The notes beneath the pieces were generated by a model that was not told the origin of the DNA, made no database searches, and worked only from the letters and a program-made list of their open reading frames with translations. A stretch of DNA of 64,000 nt from an uncultured cyanobacterium (GTDB lineage: Bacteria; Cyanobacteriota; Cyanobacteriia; CAKZMO01), in the NCBI GenBank assembly GCA_963719515.1, contig CAVRCJ010000010.1, positions 32,001-96,000 of the forward strand, written 5' to 3'. Shown in pieces: positions 35,579 through 42,860 of the stretch. Numbering within the stretch: the stretch's first letter is position 1; each line of letters starts with the position of its first letter. The position numbers were made by a program, and so were the translations under genes.

Positions 35579-38500
35579 ATGAGAGATGCTCTAACGGTTG
35601 GCATCAATACCTATCAGTATTTGCCGAAGCTGAAGACTCCAGCTAATGACGCGAATGCGATCGCCACTTTATTGGAGCAATACGGTAGCTTTCGCGTCCA
35701 GCGCCTGCCCGAGGTCATCCGTGAAGAGCGGGCTACCGTCGGACGACGAACGCCGGTTACTCTTCCAGAGTTAGAGTCGGCTTTGATTCGCCTGTTTAAG
35801 CCCCCCGGTTCTAATGTGCCCCAAACGGCATTGTTTTACTTCTCAGGGCACGGCATTCAGCGGCATGCAGGCATTCGGGAGGGTTATTTGGCCCTGTCGG
35901 ACTCTCAACCTGAGGCCGGGGCAGCGGGGCTGTCGCTATTTTGGCTGCGGCGACTGCTGCAGGAAAGCCCAGTTCGGCAGCGCATCGTCATTCTAGACTG
36001 CTGTCACAGTGGCGAATTACTCACCTTCCTAGAGGCCGATCCCGGAGCGCGGCCTGGCACCGACCGTATGTTTATGGTGGCCTGCCGGGAGTACGAAGCG
36101 GCCTATGAGTCTCTCACCAGTGATCACAGCATCTTTACCGAGGCCATCTTGAGTGGGCTTGATCCTCGCTGCCATGCTGCGGGCCGCGTCACCAACTACT
36201 CCCTCACGAGCGGGGCGAATCGAGCGCTCCAAGGGCAGCCCCAGCAGCCCCTCTTCGAGAATTCGGGGGGAGAAATTCTGCTCACCGCTAGCAGCACTCA
36301 GCTACGGGCTCGGTCTGATGGGGACGACTACTGCCCCTATCCAGGGCTGGCTCCGTTTGATAGCGGTCACGCCGACTATTACTTTGGGCGGGAGAAGCTC
36401 ACCCGCACGCTCATCGACGAAGTGATTACGCGCCCGCTGGTGACGCTCATTGGTCCTTCGGGCTGCGGCAAATCTTCCCTACTGCGGGCGGGGCTGATGG
36501 CTCAGCTGCGCCGGGGCCAGGCCTTTCCCGAGAGCGATCGCTGGCGCGTGCGGCTGATGGTGCCAGGCGATCGCCCCCTCAAGCAGCTGGCCGCCGCTTT
36601 CATTGACCCTGACAGCACTGGACTTGAGCGGGCCGAGCAGCTGCGACGGGCGGAGGGGTTTTTGCAGGACGGCGGCCCAGGGCTGACCCAACTCCTGCGC
36701 GGCAGCCTGCTGAAAGAAAGCGCCAGCGGCTTGGGGCCACGTCCACGATTTGTGCTCGTGATCGATCAGTTTGAAGAGCTGTTTACCCTGTGCCACAGCG
36801 ATCGCAGTCAAGCCGAGCGGCGGCAGATGATTGATGCGCTATTGCATGCGCTGCGGGAGGCCCAAAGCTGTTTTCGCGTCGTTGTGGGGCTGCGAGCAGA
36901 CTTTTTGGGCCGCTGCCTCCAAGATGATGCCTTGGCGGCGGCGATGACGCCAGGACTGCTGCGGGTGCTTCCCCTATCCTACGAGCAGCTCAAAGCAGCT
37001 ATTCTCAAGCCTGCTCAAAAAGTAAACCTCTATTGCGAACCCCACCTTGTGTACGCCATGCTGTTTGACATCGTTGGTGCGCCGGGGGAGCTACCGCTGC
37101 TGCAGTACACGCTGCGCCAGCTGTGGCAGCAGCGTCAGCAAAATACGCTCACCCAAGCAGCCTACACGGCTTTGGACGGCGTTCACGGCATCCTGCACAC
37201 CCGCGCCTCCCAGGTGTTTGACCATCTCTCGGTAACCCAGCAGGACATTGCGAAGTGCATTTTCCTGGCGCTCACCCAGCTGGGGGACGGCACCGAAGAC
37301 ACGCGGCGGCGGGTGGCAAAATCCCATCTGCTGCAGCTGGCTTACGCGCCCCGAGCCATCGAAGAAACCCTAGAAATCTTGGTGAACGAGAAGCTTATTA
37401 TCACAAGTCATCGAGACCTAGACTGCTCTGAGGGAAAGACTCTGGAGGGCCACCGCGAAACGGTGGATATTGCCCATGAAGCCCTAATTCGCCGCTGGCC
37501 GCTATTGCAGGGGTGGTTGGACGAAAATCGGGACATGCTGCGGCGGCAGCGAAGTCTGGAGCAGGCGGCAACGGTCTGGTATCAAGCCGGGCAGCCTGAC
37601 CATGTAGAGTATCTGCTTCAGGGGAGTCGCCTTCTCGACGCCGAAGAATTTCTTCACCAGCCCAACTATAAGCCTACTCGCCTAGTCAAGCAGTACGTCG
37701 CCCTCAGCCGCGCCACCAACCAGCGATCGCATTGGGAGCGGCGACGACTGCAGTTTGCTCTGCCCTGCATTATTCTGATGGCCTTGGTCGCCGGCTTTTC
37801 TCAGTACTATGGCGCGGCGAGGGCACGCTCAATTCAGACGGCACAGCTGCGCCAGCTGCAGTCACGAGAGCAGGCGGCAATCGCTCAAGATCTGCTCGAT
37901 GACCCCACCAGTGATCCGACGACGGCGCTGCTCATCGGCGCGCTGGCCCTCGAGAGTGCCCCCACCCCCGCCGCGCAGACCAGCGTTCGCCAGGCGCTGG
38001 CACAGCTTCCGCTCCAGACTCTATCGCTGGACTCAGGGCCAATTACCCAGATTGCGGCTGATGCCGGGCAGCTGGCGATCGCTAGCGCTGATGACACCAT
38101 TCGCTTGTGGTCTTCCCGTCGCCGGGGGCTGCAGCGCCCTAATCATCGCGCTGCAGCACAGCAGCTCTCGGCTCCGGACTATTTGCTCTCGGCCTCTCGG
38201 TCGCCGCTTGACCCTGAGGCCAAAGCTGTGACCCATCTCGCCTTTAGCGCCGATGGGTCAGCGCTAGTCGCCGCCACTGAATCGGTGACGGGCAGCACTT
38301 TAATTCGCCTGTGGTCTACTGATGGGGTGCTGCTGCATGAGCAGGACATCGACAGCCCTGTGACGGCGCTGGCGGTCAGCCCAACGGGGCGCTGGGTGGC
38401 AGCGGCAACTGCGGATAGCCTGCTGGTGTGGGAGCCTCAGAATAAGGTGGCAGAACTCGCCGCAAAGCCACTTTCCAAGATCAAAGCGCTACAGTTCCAG

Positions 38501-39952
38501 AGCGATACCGCCCTAGTCTCATTTAGCGGCCAGACTCTCCACCACTGGCGGCTCGGTTCGTCACCTTCTCTTCAGGAAACCCAGCAATTAGAGCCCCCTG
38601 GTGCTGCAGGTCCTGGCGCTACTCACTCTAGTTTTGCTCGTTTCAGCGCCGATGCGTCTCAGATCGCCGTTTCATCTCAGGAGGTCGGTCACCTCAACAT
38701 TTGGCAGACTTCTACCGGAGCGGTCCGGACGGTGACCTCTAGCCTGGGAGGTGATATGGCCTGTGCCGGGTCGCGGTTCCAGCGGATAGACCGCAACCAC
38801 CGCTATACGGCGACCGTTGTGTCAGACGCAGCGCAGCGCTACCTTTGCGTTAAGCCCCTAGAGCATCCCCAGTCTCTCGCCTTTAGGCTGGACGACGCAC
38901 CGACCGCGATCGCCTTTAGTGAGCAGGGGGATTACCTTTTAACAGGAGATGTGTCTGGCACGGTACGCATCTGGTCTTTAGGGGGAGGAGAGCTGCCAAC
39001 TATTGCGGCAGTTGAGCCGGTCCGCTGGATTCGCTTTCAGCCCCAGGCCACCCTGACTCAGCAGGGTCTACAGAGTATCGGAGTAGCCAGCGACCTGAAT
39101 CTCATCTCTCCCCCACCGGGCCCCGCTCGGCTCGTGGGAGTTACCGACGGGGGTGACGTGAGCTATCGCGTTGCAGCTGGGCTGACCGCGCTGCTGACCC
39201 CTTCCCCTCCCGCCGCACCCGCGCAGGATACCGCAGACCGGGCGATCGCCACAGCTCCTATCGCCTGGAGCGCGGACGGTGATCAAAAACTGATTCCCCA
39301 AGGGAAAACAGTGCATCTTAAGGAGGTTTCTTCAGGGGAAGAATTCCAGCTAGAACACGAGTCTGACGTCTTGGCGGCTCACTTTAGCCAAGAGGGCGCT
39401 TGGATTGTGACGGTTGAGGCCAGCCGAGCGACCCTCTGGAATACTGTGTCGCGGCAGATTGCCCATCGGTTCGAGCATGACGCTGAAGGTAAGCTCACTG
39501 CTGCGGCAGCAGATGCCAAACAAGGGCGCTTTGCGCTCGGCGACAACACCGGTAAGATTCACCTTTGGGATACCGCTCAGGGACGCCTTCTGGCGCGCTT
39601 TCAGGCTCATACTTCCGCCCTCTCTGCCCTAGCCCTCAGCCCAGACGGTAAGAGTCTGGCCAGCGCCGATCGCAGGGGTCAAGCTAGCCTGTGGCAGCGC
39701 TCGACCGAGGACGGAGTCGCCCAGCCGCTTGAGCTGGCGCATGGCGACAGCCCCTTTGTTCAACTTGCTTTTAGCCCCACTGGAGACTATCTGGCGCTGT
39801 TGGACCAGATGGGACAAATTCACCTGCGCGTTGGCCGCCCCGAGCCACTGAGACAGCTGTCCCAAGACCGGGCTGGGCGATCGCTCACGGCGCGAGAATG
39901 TCGGCAGCATTTGGTACCGACAGTGGACTGTCAACGGCTAGACGGCGAGTAG
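35579..39952 (+). CDS. Caspase (peptidase C14)-STAND NTPase-TM-WD40 multidomain protein
   Basis: FYFSGHG (His) and ILDCCHSG (Cys); CPYPGL..F, GPSGCGKSS, VIDQFEELF, LPLLQYTL, HEALIRRWP; hydrophobic helix near 37750-37810; degenerate WD40 repeats. Confidence 0.92.
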   Translation: MRDALTVGINTYQYLPKLKTPANDANAIATLLEQYGSFRVQRLPEVIREERATVGRRTPVTLPELESALIRLFKPPGSNVPQTALFYFSGHGIQRHAGIREGYLALSDSQPEAGAAGLSLFWLRRLLQESPVRQRIVILDCCHSGELLTFLEADPGARPGTDRMFMVACREYEAAYESLTSDHSIFTEAILSGLDPRCHAAGRVTNYSLTSGANRALQGQPQQPLFENSGGEILLTASSTQLRARSDGDDYCPYPGLAPFDSGHADYYFGREKLTRTLIDEVITRPLVTLIGPSGCGKSSLLRAGLMAQLRRGQAFPESDRWRVRLMVPGDRPLKQLAAAFIDPDSTGLERAEQLRRAEGFLQDGGPGLTQLLRGSLLKESASGLGPRPRFVLVIDQFEELFTLCHSDRSQAERRQMIDALLHALREAQSCFRVVVGLRADFLGRCLQDDALAAAMTPGLLRVLPLSYEQLKAAILKPAQKVNLYCEPHLVYAMLFDIVGAPGELPLLQYTLRQLWQQRQQNTLTQAAYTALDGVHGILHTRASQVFDHLSVTQQDIAKCIFLALTQLGDGTEDTRRRVAKSHLLQLAYAPRAIEETLEILVNEKLIITSHRDLDCSEGKTLEGHRETVDIAHEALIRRWPLLQGWLDENRDMLRRQRSLEQAATVWYQAGQPDHVEYLLQGSRLLDAEEFLHQPNYKPTRLVKQYVALSRATNQRSHWERRRLQFALPCIILMALVAGFSQYYGAARARSIQTAQLRQLQSREQAAIAQDLLDDPTSDPTTALLIGALALESAPTPAAQTSVRQALAQLPLQTLSLDSGPITQIAADAGQLAIASADDTIRLWSSRRRGLQRPNHRAAAQQLSAPDYLLSASRSPLDPEAKAVTHLAFSADGSALVAATESVTGSTLIRLWSTDGVLLHEQDIDSPVTALAVSPTGRWVAAATADSLLVWEPQNKVAELAAKPLSKIKALQFQSDTALVSFSGQTLHHWRLGSSPSLQETQQLEPPGAAGPGATHSSFARFSADASQIAVSSQEVGHLNIWQTSTGAVRTVTSSLGGDMACAGSRFQRIDRNHRYTATVVSDAAQRYLCVKPLEHPQSLAFRLDDAPTAIAFSEQGDYLLTGDVSGTVRIWSLGGGELPTIAAVEPVRWIRFQPQATLTQQGLQSIGVASDLNLISPPPGPARLVGVTDGGDVSYRVAAGLTALLTPSPPAAPAQDTADRAIATAPIAWSADGDQKLIPQGKTVHLKEVSSGEEFQLEHESDVLAAHFSQEGAWIVTVEASRATLWNTVSRQIAHRFEHDAEGKLTAAAADAKQGRFALGDNTGKIHLWDTAQGRLLARFQAHTSALSALALSPDGKSLASADRRGQASLWQRSTEDGVAQPLELAHGDSPFVQLAFSPTGDYLALLDQMGQIHLRVGRPEPLRQLSQDRAGRSLTARECRQHLVPTVDCQRLDGE

Positions 39953-40965: not shown

Positions 40966-41370
40966 TTAGAAATCGTCTAGCTCTGCTGGGTCAATTTGTC
41001 GGCGCATCTCGGCAATGGTCTGCGCGGGAGCCGTCGCCACCATCGGCATGCCTCCGTTGTGGCTCAAGATGTTTTGCCTAGGGGGCGGGGTGATGAAAGC
41101 CGCCGAATCTCCAATGCCATAGCGCTGCTGAATTTGAAAGATACGAAACTGAAGCTCTTCCACTGCAGTCGCCGCTAAGTTTTGCAGCTGAGCGGGCTCG
41201 AGGTCATCTTCTAGCACCCAGGGCATGTAGAACGCTTTGAGCGCCCTCAAAGTTGCATCTCGGGGCGGCAAGATGGGGTCTTCTTTGAGATAGTTCACCA
41301 GCTTTCCATCCATGGAGCTAACCTCAGCATCGATGCGGATGCTGATGCGCTCGCGCTTTGGCTTACTCAT
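40966..41370 (-). CDS. Putative ParR-like ribbon-helix-helix adaptor
   Basis: Alternating beta-strand RISIRID then two helices; Pro-rich linker; acidic/aromatic tail ELDDF; ATGA overlap with ParM-like gene. Confidence 0.65.
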   Translation of the reverse strand: MSKPKRERISIRIDAEVSSMDGKLVNYLKEDPILPPRDATLRALKAFYMPWVLEDDLEPAQLQNLAATAVEELQFRIFQIQQRYGIGDSAAFITPPPRQNILSHNGGMPMVATAPAQTIAEMRRQIDPAELDDF

Positions 41371-42503
41371 GACAGCGCTCCCATAGAGCGAGATTGTGAT
41401 GTGGACAGGGTACCATTGGTCGCGTCGCTAAACTTGATTGCCAGCCATTTTGCGCCGCCGTAGCAGTCGGAGAAGCGAGCTTGGTCAGCAGGGGTCATCA
41501 CCCGCAGCACAGAGCAGACCTCACGGCCCATCTCTGCTAGCCAATTGACTTCAGCGCCTGGCATATCTGTCAGCATCTGATTGAGGTTGTCCCGCAGCAG
41601 CGTATGAGCCGTGCCCCCGCCAATCAGGATTTCGTAGTTAGGAATGTTGAGCGAGGCGAACTTATCGCTCAGGTGGTGGCGGACCTGCTCCCAATAGTAG
41701 GCTTCTGCTTTCTGACGCCGTTCCGTGAGGGGATACTGCTTGCCGGGCTGATCGGGAAACGCCACGGTGTCAGCGCCGCGAATGAGAGCATCGTAGAGAT
41801 AGGGGTTGTCGGGCTTGCACATGCCCTGGGAAATCGACTGTAGATATTCTAGATAGCCCAGACGCACCGTTCCGCTCGGCTCTCCTGTCGGGGGCTTTCC
41901 CTGCCGGAAAATAAGAAAAGTGAGGTCGCGGTGACCGACAATAACCACTACGTAGGAACTTTGCGGGGGCTGACCATGCTGCATGGCCTGCATTTTTCGC
42001 CACTGCACCAGCCCAGCGCCCTCAGGCAGAATTTTAACGGCCTGAGGCTCAATCGTAATTTCTTTGCCTCGGTACAGAAAAGACGACGTTGAGCTGAGCT
42101 GCTGGCTAACTTCATGCTGATCGCTGAGGTACTCGTCAAACGGGAGGGCAACGCCGATGTCGATGGGCAGCCGGTCAACTTTGAAGCGCTCTGCCAGCTC
42201 GCCAATAGCCCCTAAAATTCGCAGCTTGGCTAGCGTGCTTTTCCGCAGCATCTCCGTGCTCTTGTTGGAGCGGCCTTCAGCGTCATCTGCCAGGGCATAG
42301 CCCTTGCCGTCTACCTGGAGGTAGGCTCCTGAACCAATACCGCCACCAAACTGATCGCCTTGATCGGTCAGTATCTGTAATTCGGAGGGAGGGAGATCGG
42401 CGACTTTGGGCGGACAGAGATAGCTGTAGAAGCTGATGCTATCGCTGAAAGACGCCTTTGTCGCACTCATGCCCAGGTCAACAAAGATTTGAAACTTAGC
42501 CAT
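41367..42503 (-). CDS. ParM/StbA-family actin-like ATPase
   Basis: Actin-fold motifs VDLGMSATK (phosphate 1), ILPEGAG, VIVGHRD (phosphate 2), LIGGGTA (adenosine), RFSDCYG. Confidence 0.88.
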   Translation of the reverse strand: MAKFQIFVDLGMSATKASFSDSISFYSYLCPPKVADLPPSELQILTDQGDQFGGGIGSGAYLQVDGKGYALADDAEGRSNKSTEMLRKSTLAKLRILGAIGELAERFKVDRLPIDIGVALPFDEYLSDQHEVSQQLSSTSSFLYRGKEITIEPQAVKILPEGAGLVQWRKMQAMQHGQPPQSSYVVVIVGHRDLTFLIFRQGKPPTGEPSGTVRLGYLEYLQSISQGMCKPDNPYLYDALIRGADTVAFPDQPGKQYPLTERRQKAEAYYWEQVRHHLSDKFASLNIPNYEILIGGGTAHTLLRDNLNQMLTDMPGAEVNWLAEMGREVCSVLRVMTPADQARFSDCYGGAKWLAIKFSDATNGTLSTSQSRSMGALS

Positions 42504-42678
42504 GGTTCTGCTGTACTGCGAGGGAAGCTAGGAGCATTATGGCGCATTATGGCGTTTAGTAACTGTATAACAGGGGGATGATCTGACTTATTACAGATGA
42601 CTTGATAAACCTGTCCTGATTTAGAGTTTATCTGGCGGAATTCTGGTTTTTGGGCTGTCTAGATAAGTGGATGCCTTC

Positions 42679-42860
42679 TTAGAGGGCGTTTGAAAAGTAG
42701 CCAACGCTCTGCATTGCCCCCTCTAACTCCCCTGCGTCCTCCGGACATGCTCCGCGAATACAAAGGGGGAGAATCAGGATTTCCCCCTTTGGCAAGAGGG
42801 AATTAAGGGGGGGGGGAAGCAGTGGCGTAACGCTTTGATCAACGCTTTTCAAACATCTTA
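42679..42860. mobile_element. MITE-like non-autonomous element with internal C/G-run palindromes
   Basis: Ends GAGGGCGTTTGAAAAG and CTTTTCAAACATC (10-bp perfect inverted core), TTA on both flanks, no ORF. Confidence 0.6.

Follow-up and report, generated by a model that had tools for sequence, protein, structure and literature searches.

Background

Type II plasmid partition systems like ParMRC of R1 and pSK41 comprise an actin-fold protein, a ParR-like adaptor with a C-terminal actin-binding peptide, and promoter repeats, of which R1 parC has about ten. ParMR pairs are also known from chromosomes, namely CorMR/FcmBC in the Nostocales and Oscillatoriales (PDB 9rmi, NF052678) and the cParMs of Firmicutes. 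According to the available sections of the two reports, FcmBC is the same system as CorMR (PMC12645912), and the system is characterised by cortical filaments, a cell-shape phenotype, and control by MinC (10.1101/2025.06.27.661541; PMC12645912). The accessible text of the CorMR paper describes one chromosomal ParMR incorporation that was vertically inherited in cyanobacteria, together with some lineage-specific acquisitions, and asks whether ParMR has been repurposed more than once (10.1101/2025.06.27.661541). Here, we analysed a stretch of 64,000 nucleotides from an uncultured cyanobacterium (the window; positions 32001-96000 of contig C10 of genome G000), which encodes an actin-like protein and a ParR-like adaptor. 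The likely origin of the pair is an ancient capture, distinct from that of CorMR, from a mobile element that carried a relaxase. While the function of the pair is inferred, the evolutionary result is solid: to the chromosomal ParMRs described in the accessible literature (PMC12270681) the family adds an independent capture from a relaxase-linked clade, which was repeated at least twice.

Results and discussion

A chromosomal actin-adaptor pair

The pair is encoded by two coupled open reading frames (ORFs):
41367-42503, minus strand: actin-like gene, 378 residues (P0001), an ORF with ParM fold
40966-41370, minus strand: ParR-like adaptor gene, 134 residues (P0002), an ORF coupled to the actin gene

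Their lengths and their overlap by ATGA at 41367-41370 are as the first-pass annotation of this DNA had given them. The pair is real and it is chromosomal, because contig C10 is 905 kb long (904,777 bp) and carries 11 transfer RNAs, and because there is no relaxase, rep, or integrase nearby. The GC content of the contig is usual for the genome. In a Pfam scan, 44 ORFs of the window yielded housekeeping families but not a single rep, relaxase, or integrase, in agreement with the earlier description of the neighbours as ordinary chromosomal genes. Only a single gene name in the window, a Uma2 endonuclease at 17 kb distance from the pair, suggests a mobile element, and a TrwC relaxase was not found anywhere in the genome. 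The closest titled records to the family are from Elainellaceae and Leptolyngbyaceae cyanobacteria.

The pair resembles type II ParMRC in the actin fold, the ParR-like adaptor with its C-terminal actin-binding peptide, and the promoter repeats; it differs in not being on a plasmid, in having only two repeats, and in the absence of the phosphate-2 aspartate of the actin. With the cParMs of Desulfitobacterium and Clostridium (PDB 8x1i) it shares the status of a conserved chromosomal ParMR of unknown role, but it belongs to an unrelated lineage (14% identity in the structure alignment) from another phylum. For one of these cParMs the accessible part of the publication describes a parC on the genome that is bound by the adaptor, and neither a relaxase-linked ancestry nor LexA-like sites are seen in that part (PMC12270681).

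The pair is almost certainly not CorMR

The actin-like protein matches Pfam ALP_N with 41.3 bits, which is above the cut-off. CorM is its only PDB sequence match and FcmB (CorM) its only NCBIfam match, the latter with 32.3 bits where the cut-off is 300. The best structural match of the AlphaFold model (predicted local distance difference test, pLDDT, 89.4) is again CorM (9rmi; Z 28.0, root-mean-square deviation 3.9, 319 aligned residues, 17% identity), followed by Ta0583, Alp7A, and ParMs. The protein had been supposed to contain all motifs of the actin fold. The phosphate-1 motif (DLGMSATK), the invariant Glu161 of PEG, and the adenosine motif (GGG) are indeed present, but the phosphate-2 aspartate is not, and the motif reads V-I-V-G-H-R-D with Ile188 at the position where CorM has Asp:
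41922-41954, minus strand: phosphate-2 region of the actin-like protein, residues 184-194 (YVVVIVGHRDL), with the usual aspartate missing

This aspartate is found in none of the displayed non-CorM rows of the family and its relaxase-linked members, whereas the CorM rows have it. Furthermore, the first strand is preceded by only 3 residues and there is no disordered N-terminal extension, compared to 40-41 residues in two Nostocales-type CorMs.

Phylogenetic trees were computed with FastTree for 149 rows and with IQ-TREE (LG+G4) for 45 of these, and the placements of long branches, above all that of CorM, are unsure. In both trees the clade of the window's pair (clade A) is separate from CorM, and it is found among relaxase-linked copies. 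An approximately unbiased (AU) test rejected clade A and CorM as one group (p=0.002), while the whole family as sister of CorM was not rejected (p=0.53). Of 301 genomes of the class, 14 encode this protein family (over 470 bits), 74 encode CorM, and 8 of the 14 encode both. CorM above the FcmB cut-off is absent from all 17 genomes of the window's taxonomic family and from all 12 searched hosts of clade A, but it is present in 12 of 15 hosts of a second chromosomal clade (clade B). Replacement of CorM by the pair would fit clade A but does not fit clade B and was rejected. The Leptothoe/Adonisia-type genomes (L044-L051, L053-L059) keep a clade B member beside a true CorM in 10 of 10 searched cases.

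What the pair has in common with CorMR is a chromosomal cyanobacterial actin-adaptor operon of plasmid origin, the same fold, and an adaptor with an LDDF end, the tail by which it is predicted to contact the actin. The differences are an identity of about 17%, a separate capture, the co-occurrence of family members with CorM, the missing N-terminal amphipathic helix of the adaptor, the missing 40-residue extension and phosphate-2 aspartate of the actin, and the short promoter repeats, which the pair has kept. Of the two possibilities offered by the first-pass annotation, a divergent CorMR or a separate lineage, only the separate lineage is left.

Ancestry among relaxase-linked copies

The best match of the actin in PLSDB (42 records) is only 28.6% identical, and 7 of 9 inspected plasmid matches are oriented divergently from a relaxase gene. 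The same arrangement, with a TrwC relaxase gene that starts 200-800 bp upstream and points away from the pair, was found in 10 of 44 family loci from GTDB and in two more loci from the class search, and one Leptolyngbya genome carries three relaxase-linked copies. The close relaxase-linked relatives are 57-71% identical to the pair. Clade A (21 rows, support 100) is nested among rows with divergent TrwC relaxase and is itself free of relaxases, which, because several of its loci have short flanks (L024, L026, L028, L029, L033), rests mainly on loci with 6-8 kb of upstream sequence.

Clade B is the second relaxase-free chromosomal clade and comprises 15 Leptothoe/Adonisia-type loci, 2 Leptolyngbya bins, and 3 Spirulina-type loci. 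Of the Leptothoe/Adonisia-type loci, 14 of 15 are syntenic with dUTPase, M23 peptidase, and chorismate synthase, and two are located on scaffolds of 7-8 Mb. A single capture for both clades was rejected by the AU test (p=2e-5), and the Leptothoe/Adonisia clade is therefore a separate capture.

A relaxase-linked sister copy (L140; G184:C1:1354000-1371000) is located inside a closed chromosome of 5.6 Mb. It is likely an integrated element and an intermediate of the capture, in which the element would first integrate and then lose its transfer genes. The flanks of the L140 pair encode a large helicase of the DEAD/MrfA type and a NACHT protein. In other relaxase-linked members (L036-L043, L064, L134) genes for a response regulator and a histidine kinase come after the pair, and often one for a Uma2 endonuclease as well.

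The relaxase-linked cyanobacterial plasmid ParM/StbA pairs (e.g. pCC7120gamma WP_010994090.1, pNPUN03 WP_012412853.1, pLBX WP_017291841.1) have, like the window's pair, a phosphate-2 motif without aspartate (G-H/Y-R), a homologous adaptor core (99.1%), and the order actin then adaptor, and the nearest mobile members share the CGCCA repeats described below. Unlike them, the window's pair is chromosomal and apparently vertically inherited, does not exceed 28.6% identity with any copy in PLSDB, lacks the relaxase, the region of the origin of transfer (oriT), and the downstream mobilisation genes, and has, in several lineages, an additional LexA-like site. Judging from the accessible text of the CorMR paper, the relaxase-linked plasmid pairs are probably one of its two mostly plasmid clades, and the one of unknown function is the likely match (10.1101/2025.06.27.661541). 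At least five plasmids carry the aspartate-less type plus a second, aspartate-bearing ParM elsewhere (the second match list contains 15 of 68 records). Each of the plasmids NC_003267.1, NC_010630.1, NZ_CP054694.1, NZ_AP017297.1, and AP018225.1 has two ParM types, and in two inspected plasmids of this kind the aspartate-less type sits opposite the relaxase. This hints at the aspartate-less plasmid clade serving transfer rather than partition.

A very probable old domestication

The proposal of a domesticated ParMR is borne out by synteny, by purifying selection, by the loss of the relaxase, and by a gene tree that agrees with the species tree, and because of these we regard an old domestication as very probable. 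Clade A is represented in all 5 genomes of the window's genus and in 3 of the 4 genomes of a second genus; in the 8 genomes from three further genera of the taxonomic family it was not found. The azlC-AraC block is located upstream of the pair in all three relatives with flank, while the region downstream of it has been rearranged in this genome. The ratio of non-synonymous to synonymous substitutions (dN/dS) amounts to 0.025-0.030 in the actin and 0.04-0.06 in the adaptor, at dS of 1.3-2.1. Among 67 gene pairs sampled from 21 regions and compared with one congener, the actin has the second-highest identity, 93.3% at a median of 80.3%. The reading frames are intact in all clade A loci, and the split between the window's own and other taxonomic families in the gene tree matches the RpoB tree (30 genomes). 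This pattern would fit one old capture with many losses. A position among recent plasmid ParMRs, which had been named as speaking against domestication, was found in part: the clade nests among relaxase-linked copies, but it is old, with synonymous sites near saturation within the genus, and does not represent a recent insert.

The domestication could also have left a stranded remnant of an integrated element without host function, or a unit that only represses itself. The patchy distribution over the class, the nesting among mobile copies, the neighbours that differ by genus, and the missing phosphate-2 aspartate would all be expected of such a remnant. The dN/dS of about 0.03 at saturated synonymous sites, the high rank in conservation, and the intact frames in all loci of the clade would not; in addition, there are no other element genes nearby, and the plasmid copies lack the aspartate, too. 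We regard a remnant as improbable.

The adaptor and its contact with the actin

The adaptor did not match any Pfam or NCBIfam model, and the PDB sequence search gave a chance match only. By profile comparison it is related with 99.1% probability to the partners of plasmid-type ParMs and with 44.5% probability to CorR. The model has an extended N-terminal segment, helices at residues 20-29, 36-52, and 59-84, a disordered linker, and a tail. Two parts are of functional interest:
41215-41358, minus strand: adaptor residues 5-52, a basic extended segment and two helices, likely a ribbon-helix-helix DNA-binding unit, with no CorR-type amphipathic helix before it
40969-41028, minus strand: adaptor residues 115-134, the C-terminal peptide, which ends with LDDF and is predicted to dock into a conserved groove of the actin

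The ribbon-helix-helix-like N-terminus of the earlier description is supported by the sequence pattern and by an Atlas lead to PF10784 at 0.89, which is a lead only, but not by structure searches, in which the monomer model gave no ribbon-helix-helix match with Foldseek or VIA-align and nothing above Z 4.8. From its sequence the region likely adopts this fold. The first 11 residues are basic, and a simple moment calculation (not Amphipaseek) did not reveal an N-terminal amphipathic helix. The scan for a membrane-binding helix, which had been suggested with CorR in mind, was thus negative: the moment is 0.24 and the mean hydrophobicity 0.08, versus 0.54 and 0.40 for Nostocales-type CorR. The adaptor rather probably binds DNA and not membranes.

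At the other end, the ELDDF tail is present as annotated, and LDDF is invariant in 28 of 28 aligned adaptors. This end is common to CorR, while the plasmid outgroup partners do not have it. The suggested prediction of the complex was computed for actin residues 1-362 and adaptor residues 101-134 and gave a score of 0.75, compared to 0.00 for the best of three controls, with at least 61% contact agreement between runs and a partner pLDDT of at least 63. Solved complexes attain the mark for this score in 116 of 157 cases and mismatched pairs in 2 of 215, and the pass may draw on the likeness to solved ParM-ParR peptide complexes. The actin residues touched by the tail (Lys157, Ala163, Val166, Lys170, Lys352, Trp353) are identical in the tabulated chromosomal and mobile members. 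According to the model, the adaptor very probably binds the actin.

Promoter repeats and a LexA-like site

Upstream of the actin gene there are three elements:
42535-42554, minus strand: two tandem 10-bp repeats with CGCCA core at -51 and -41 from the start codon, a candidate adaptor operator or shrunken parC
42536-42541, minus strand: -10-like CATAAT, overlapped by the repeats
42504-42517, minus strand: LexA-box-like 14-mer directly before the start codon of the actin gene, matching 10 of 13 consensus positions and in the same place in 4 of 4 examined members of the genus

The statement that there is no long iteron array is correct, but a short one is present in the form of the two repeats. 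A scan for sigma-70 promoters did not identify a full promoter for the operon. Two to three CGCCA cores with a period of 10-11 bp are found in 8 of 13 clade A, 4 of 12 relaxase-linked, and 0 of 20 clade B loci, and one relaxase-linked locus has two blocks of three cores. In the genome, exact pairs are found upstream of 6 of 3717 ORFs and pairs with one mismatch upstream of 37 of 1200, and arrays of three cores at an exact 10-bp period are not found genome-wide. We suppose that the repeats represent a shrunken parC or an operator. In Nodosilinea-type upstream regions CGCCA-N12-TGACG is found in place of tandem repeats.

The cyanobacterial LexA box has 14 bp, and the consensus was taken from the accessible part of PMC3091678. 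All 15 Leptothoe-type loci contain a GTAC-N4-GTAC site near -41, which matches this box. Applying one rule to all groups, LexA-like sites were found in 6 of 13 clade A loci (in the window at -14), 15 of 20 clade B loci, 0 of 12 relaxase-linked loci, 0 of 21 outgroup loci, and 2 of 18 CorM loci, compared to 48 of 3705 upstream regions in the background. Altogether, the site is present in 21 of 33 chromosomal versus 0 of 12 relaxase-linked copies. The genome encodes lexA, which has a LexA-like site itself, whereas recA matches at 11 of 13 positions by a looser score but fails the strict rule. Control of the operon by LexA is conceivable from these sites, if somewhat doubtful.

Possible function

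The anatomy of the pair is likely that of a ParMR still facing DNA, with a DNA-binding head, an operator, an actin-binding tail, and no membrane anchor. A DNA-facing role is suggested because the N-terminus of the adaptor is basic and ribbon-like, because there is no amphipathic helix, and because the promoter has short repeats. The non-segregation role proposed in the first-pass annotation is therefore not backed by the anatomy, which points to DNA and not to membrane or cell shape. The reading that we tentatively favour is a DNA-anchored filament, self-repressed and possibly gated by LexA, that would position or tether chromosomal DNA. Adaptor dimers would bind the promoter repeats and repress the operon, and LexA would hold the operon low until DNA stress. 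The actin would polymerise with ATP, perhaps with slow hydrolysis due to the missing phosphate-2 aspartate, and would be gripped by the adaptor through the predicted LDDF contact. The filament would then position or tether chromosome copies. Chromosome handling as the selected function is a little more doubtful than the reading as a whole.

Several observations weigh against this reading. The base of clade A is open in the IQ-TREE run and later transfers are therefore possible. The pair is dispensable, as it was not found in 9 of 17 genomes of the taxonomic family. Two repeats are far fewer than in a working parC and may be an operator only, and they are missing from 5 of 13 clade A loci and from all 20 clade B loci. 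The LexA-like site of the window matches at only 10 of 13 positions, and 7 of 13 clade A loci have no such site. As it was in the Leptothoe loci that the LexA motif was noticed first, their count is no independent test, and the site counts come from related genomes that represent about three lineages. The genes behind LexA-like sites in the genome are mixed (SbcD-like, IS200/605, ribonucleotide reductase, SepF, and unrelated enzymes), and a dispersed 14-base intergenic repeat passes the LexA rule at 10 of 13 positions as well. Finally, ParB was also not found in genomes without the pair, and ParB matches are present in 5 of 6 other hosts of the clade. The dispersed repeat is located at more than ten intergenic sites of the genome (e.g. 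C3:80711, C10:526169, C11:34843). A ParB-domain protein was not found in this genome and four congeners (0/5). Replacement of ParB by the pair was considered and rejected, as there is no pattern by which the absence of ParB would track with the pair.

An alternative would be a shape system that has become similar to CorMR by convergence, with cortical filaments that reach the membrane via a partner other than an N-terminal helix. The niche would be free, given that CorM is missing from the clade A hosts and from the whole taxonomic family. The LDDF end of the adaptor is like that of CorR, CorM is the best structural match, a sisterhood of family and CorM was not rejected, and some CorRs are also without a clear N-terminal helix. 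On the other hand, the CorR-type hydrophobic N-terminus and the 40-residue extension of the actin are missing, most clade B hosts keep CorM too, members of the taxonomic family without either system exist, and MreB is present in the genome. Taken together, a shape system seems unlikely.

To a similar degree it is unlikely that the pair is a tool of the host towards mobile DNA, acting in trans on related relaxase elements and either helping or blocking them, for example by titration of the repeats or mixing of filaments. Its ancestors sit opposite relaxase genes, and the plasmids that carry the aspartate-less type beside a relaxase together with a second ParM suggest a transfer-related job. The available text of PMC4949242 describes a stimulation of the relaxase by R1 ParM and ParR. 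The CGCCA core is common to the mobile copies, and the groove that binds the adaptor has been kept in chromosomal and mobile copies alike. Against this, the genome does not encode a TrwC relaxase to act on. Defence-type genes tend to change fast, and a conservation near the top of the sampled genes is unusual for a gene of this type. An orthologue of CorMR (FcmBC) that has merely diverged is very improbable, because the shared LDDF tail and the sole NCBIfam and PDB sequence matches are outweighed by 32 versus 300 bits, the AU test (p=0.002), the 8 of 14 family-carrying genomes with a true CorM, and the plasmid-ParR-like adaptor profile.

Some Leptolyngbya-like cyanobacteria keep a strongly conserved chromosomal pair that, in the favoured reading of a DNA-anchored filament, likely handles DNA, possibly under DNA-damage control. 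The locus represents a concrete second case of domestication with close relaxase-linked relatives for comparison, in which the steps (relaxase loss, shrinkage of the repeats, acquisition of a regulatory site of the host) can be read, and it offers an entry point to the functionally uncharacterised clade of plasmid ParMs. The positioning of multi-copy cyanobacterial chromosomes is an open question in the accessible text of 10.1101/2025.06.27.661541, for which the pair, if it acts on the chromosome, would be a testable candidate. In that case it would also be, within the literature searched, a first system of the ParM type with a link to the SOS response. The family was not found in the literature on chromosomal ParM, FcmB, and LexA/SOS in cyanobacteria, a scope outside of which the supplementary sequences of the CorMR paper lie.

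Other observations

The genome encodes a second chromosomal ParM-like gene of 347 residues with a partner of 96 residues (G000:C10:430005-431330; L002 1411-2726; L221). It keeps the phosphate-2 Asp and can barely be aligned to the window's actin. It is present in 15 of 16 relatives of the taxonomic family (73-87% in full-length matches), in the closed chromosome G031, where it is followed by RecJ, and in G029, and its best plasmid match is 47%. A LexA-like site is found upstream in 9 of 12 loci (in this genome a 12/13 match at -51) and in 1 of 2 loci outside the taxonomic family. This pair is likely another, more widespread domestication. There might thus be at least three further domestications of plasmid actins besides CorMR (clade A, the Leptothoe/Adonisia clade, and the second pair), several of them independently wired to LexA, which would form a damage-induced, DNA-anchored cytoskeleton for moving or tethering the chromosome copies of cells without ParB; such a generalisation is rather unlikely.

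In the surroundings of the pair, a perfect 10-bp inverted repeat with a terminator-like shape (42761-42791) is located between the actin gene and a divergent binding-protein gene. On the plus strand, 35579-39952 encodes a protein of 1457 residues with a caspase-like peptidase, an nSTAND1 NTPase, and WD40 repeats, an architecture of the STAND conflict-system type.

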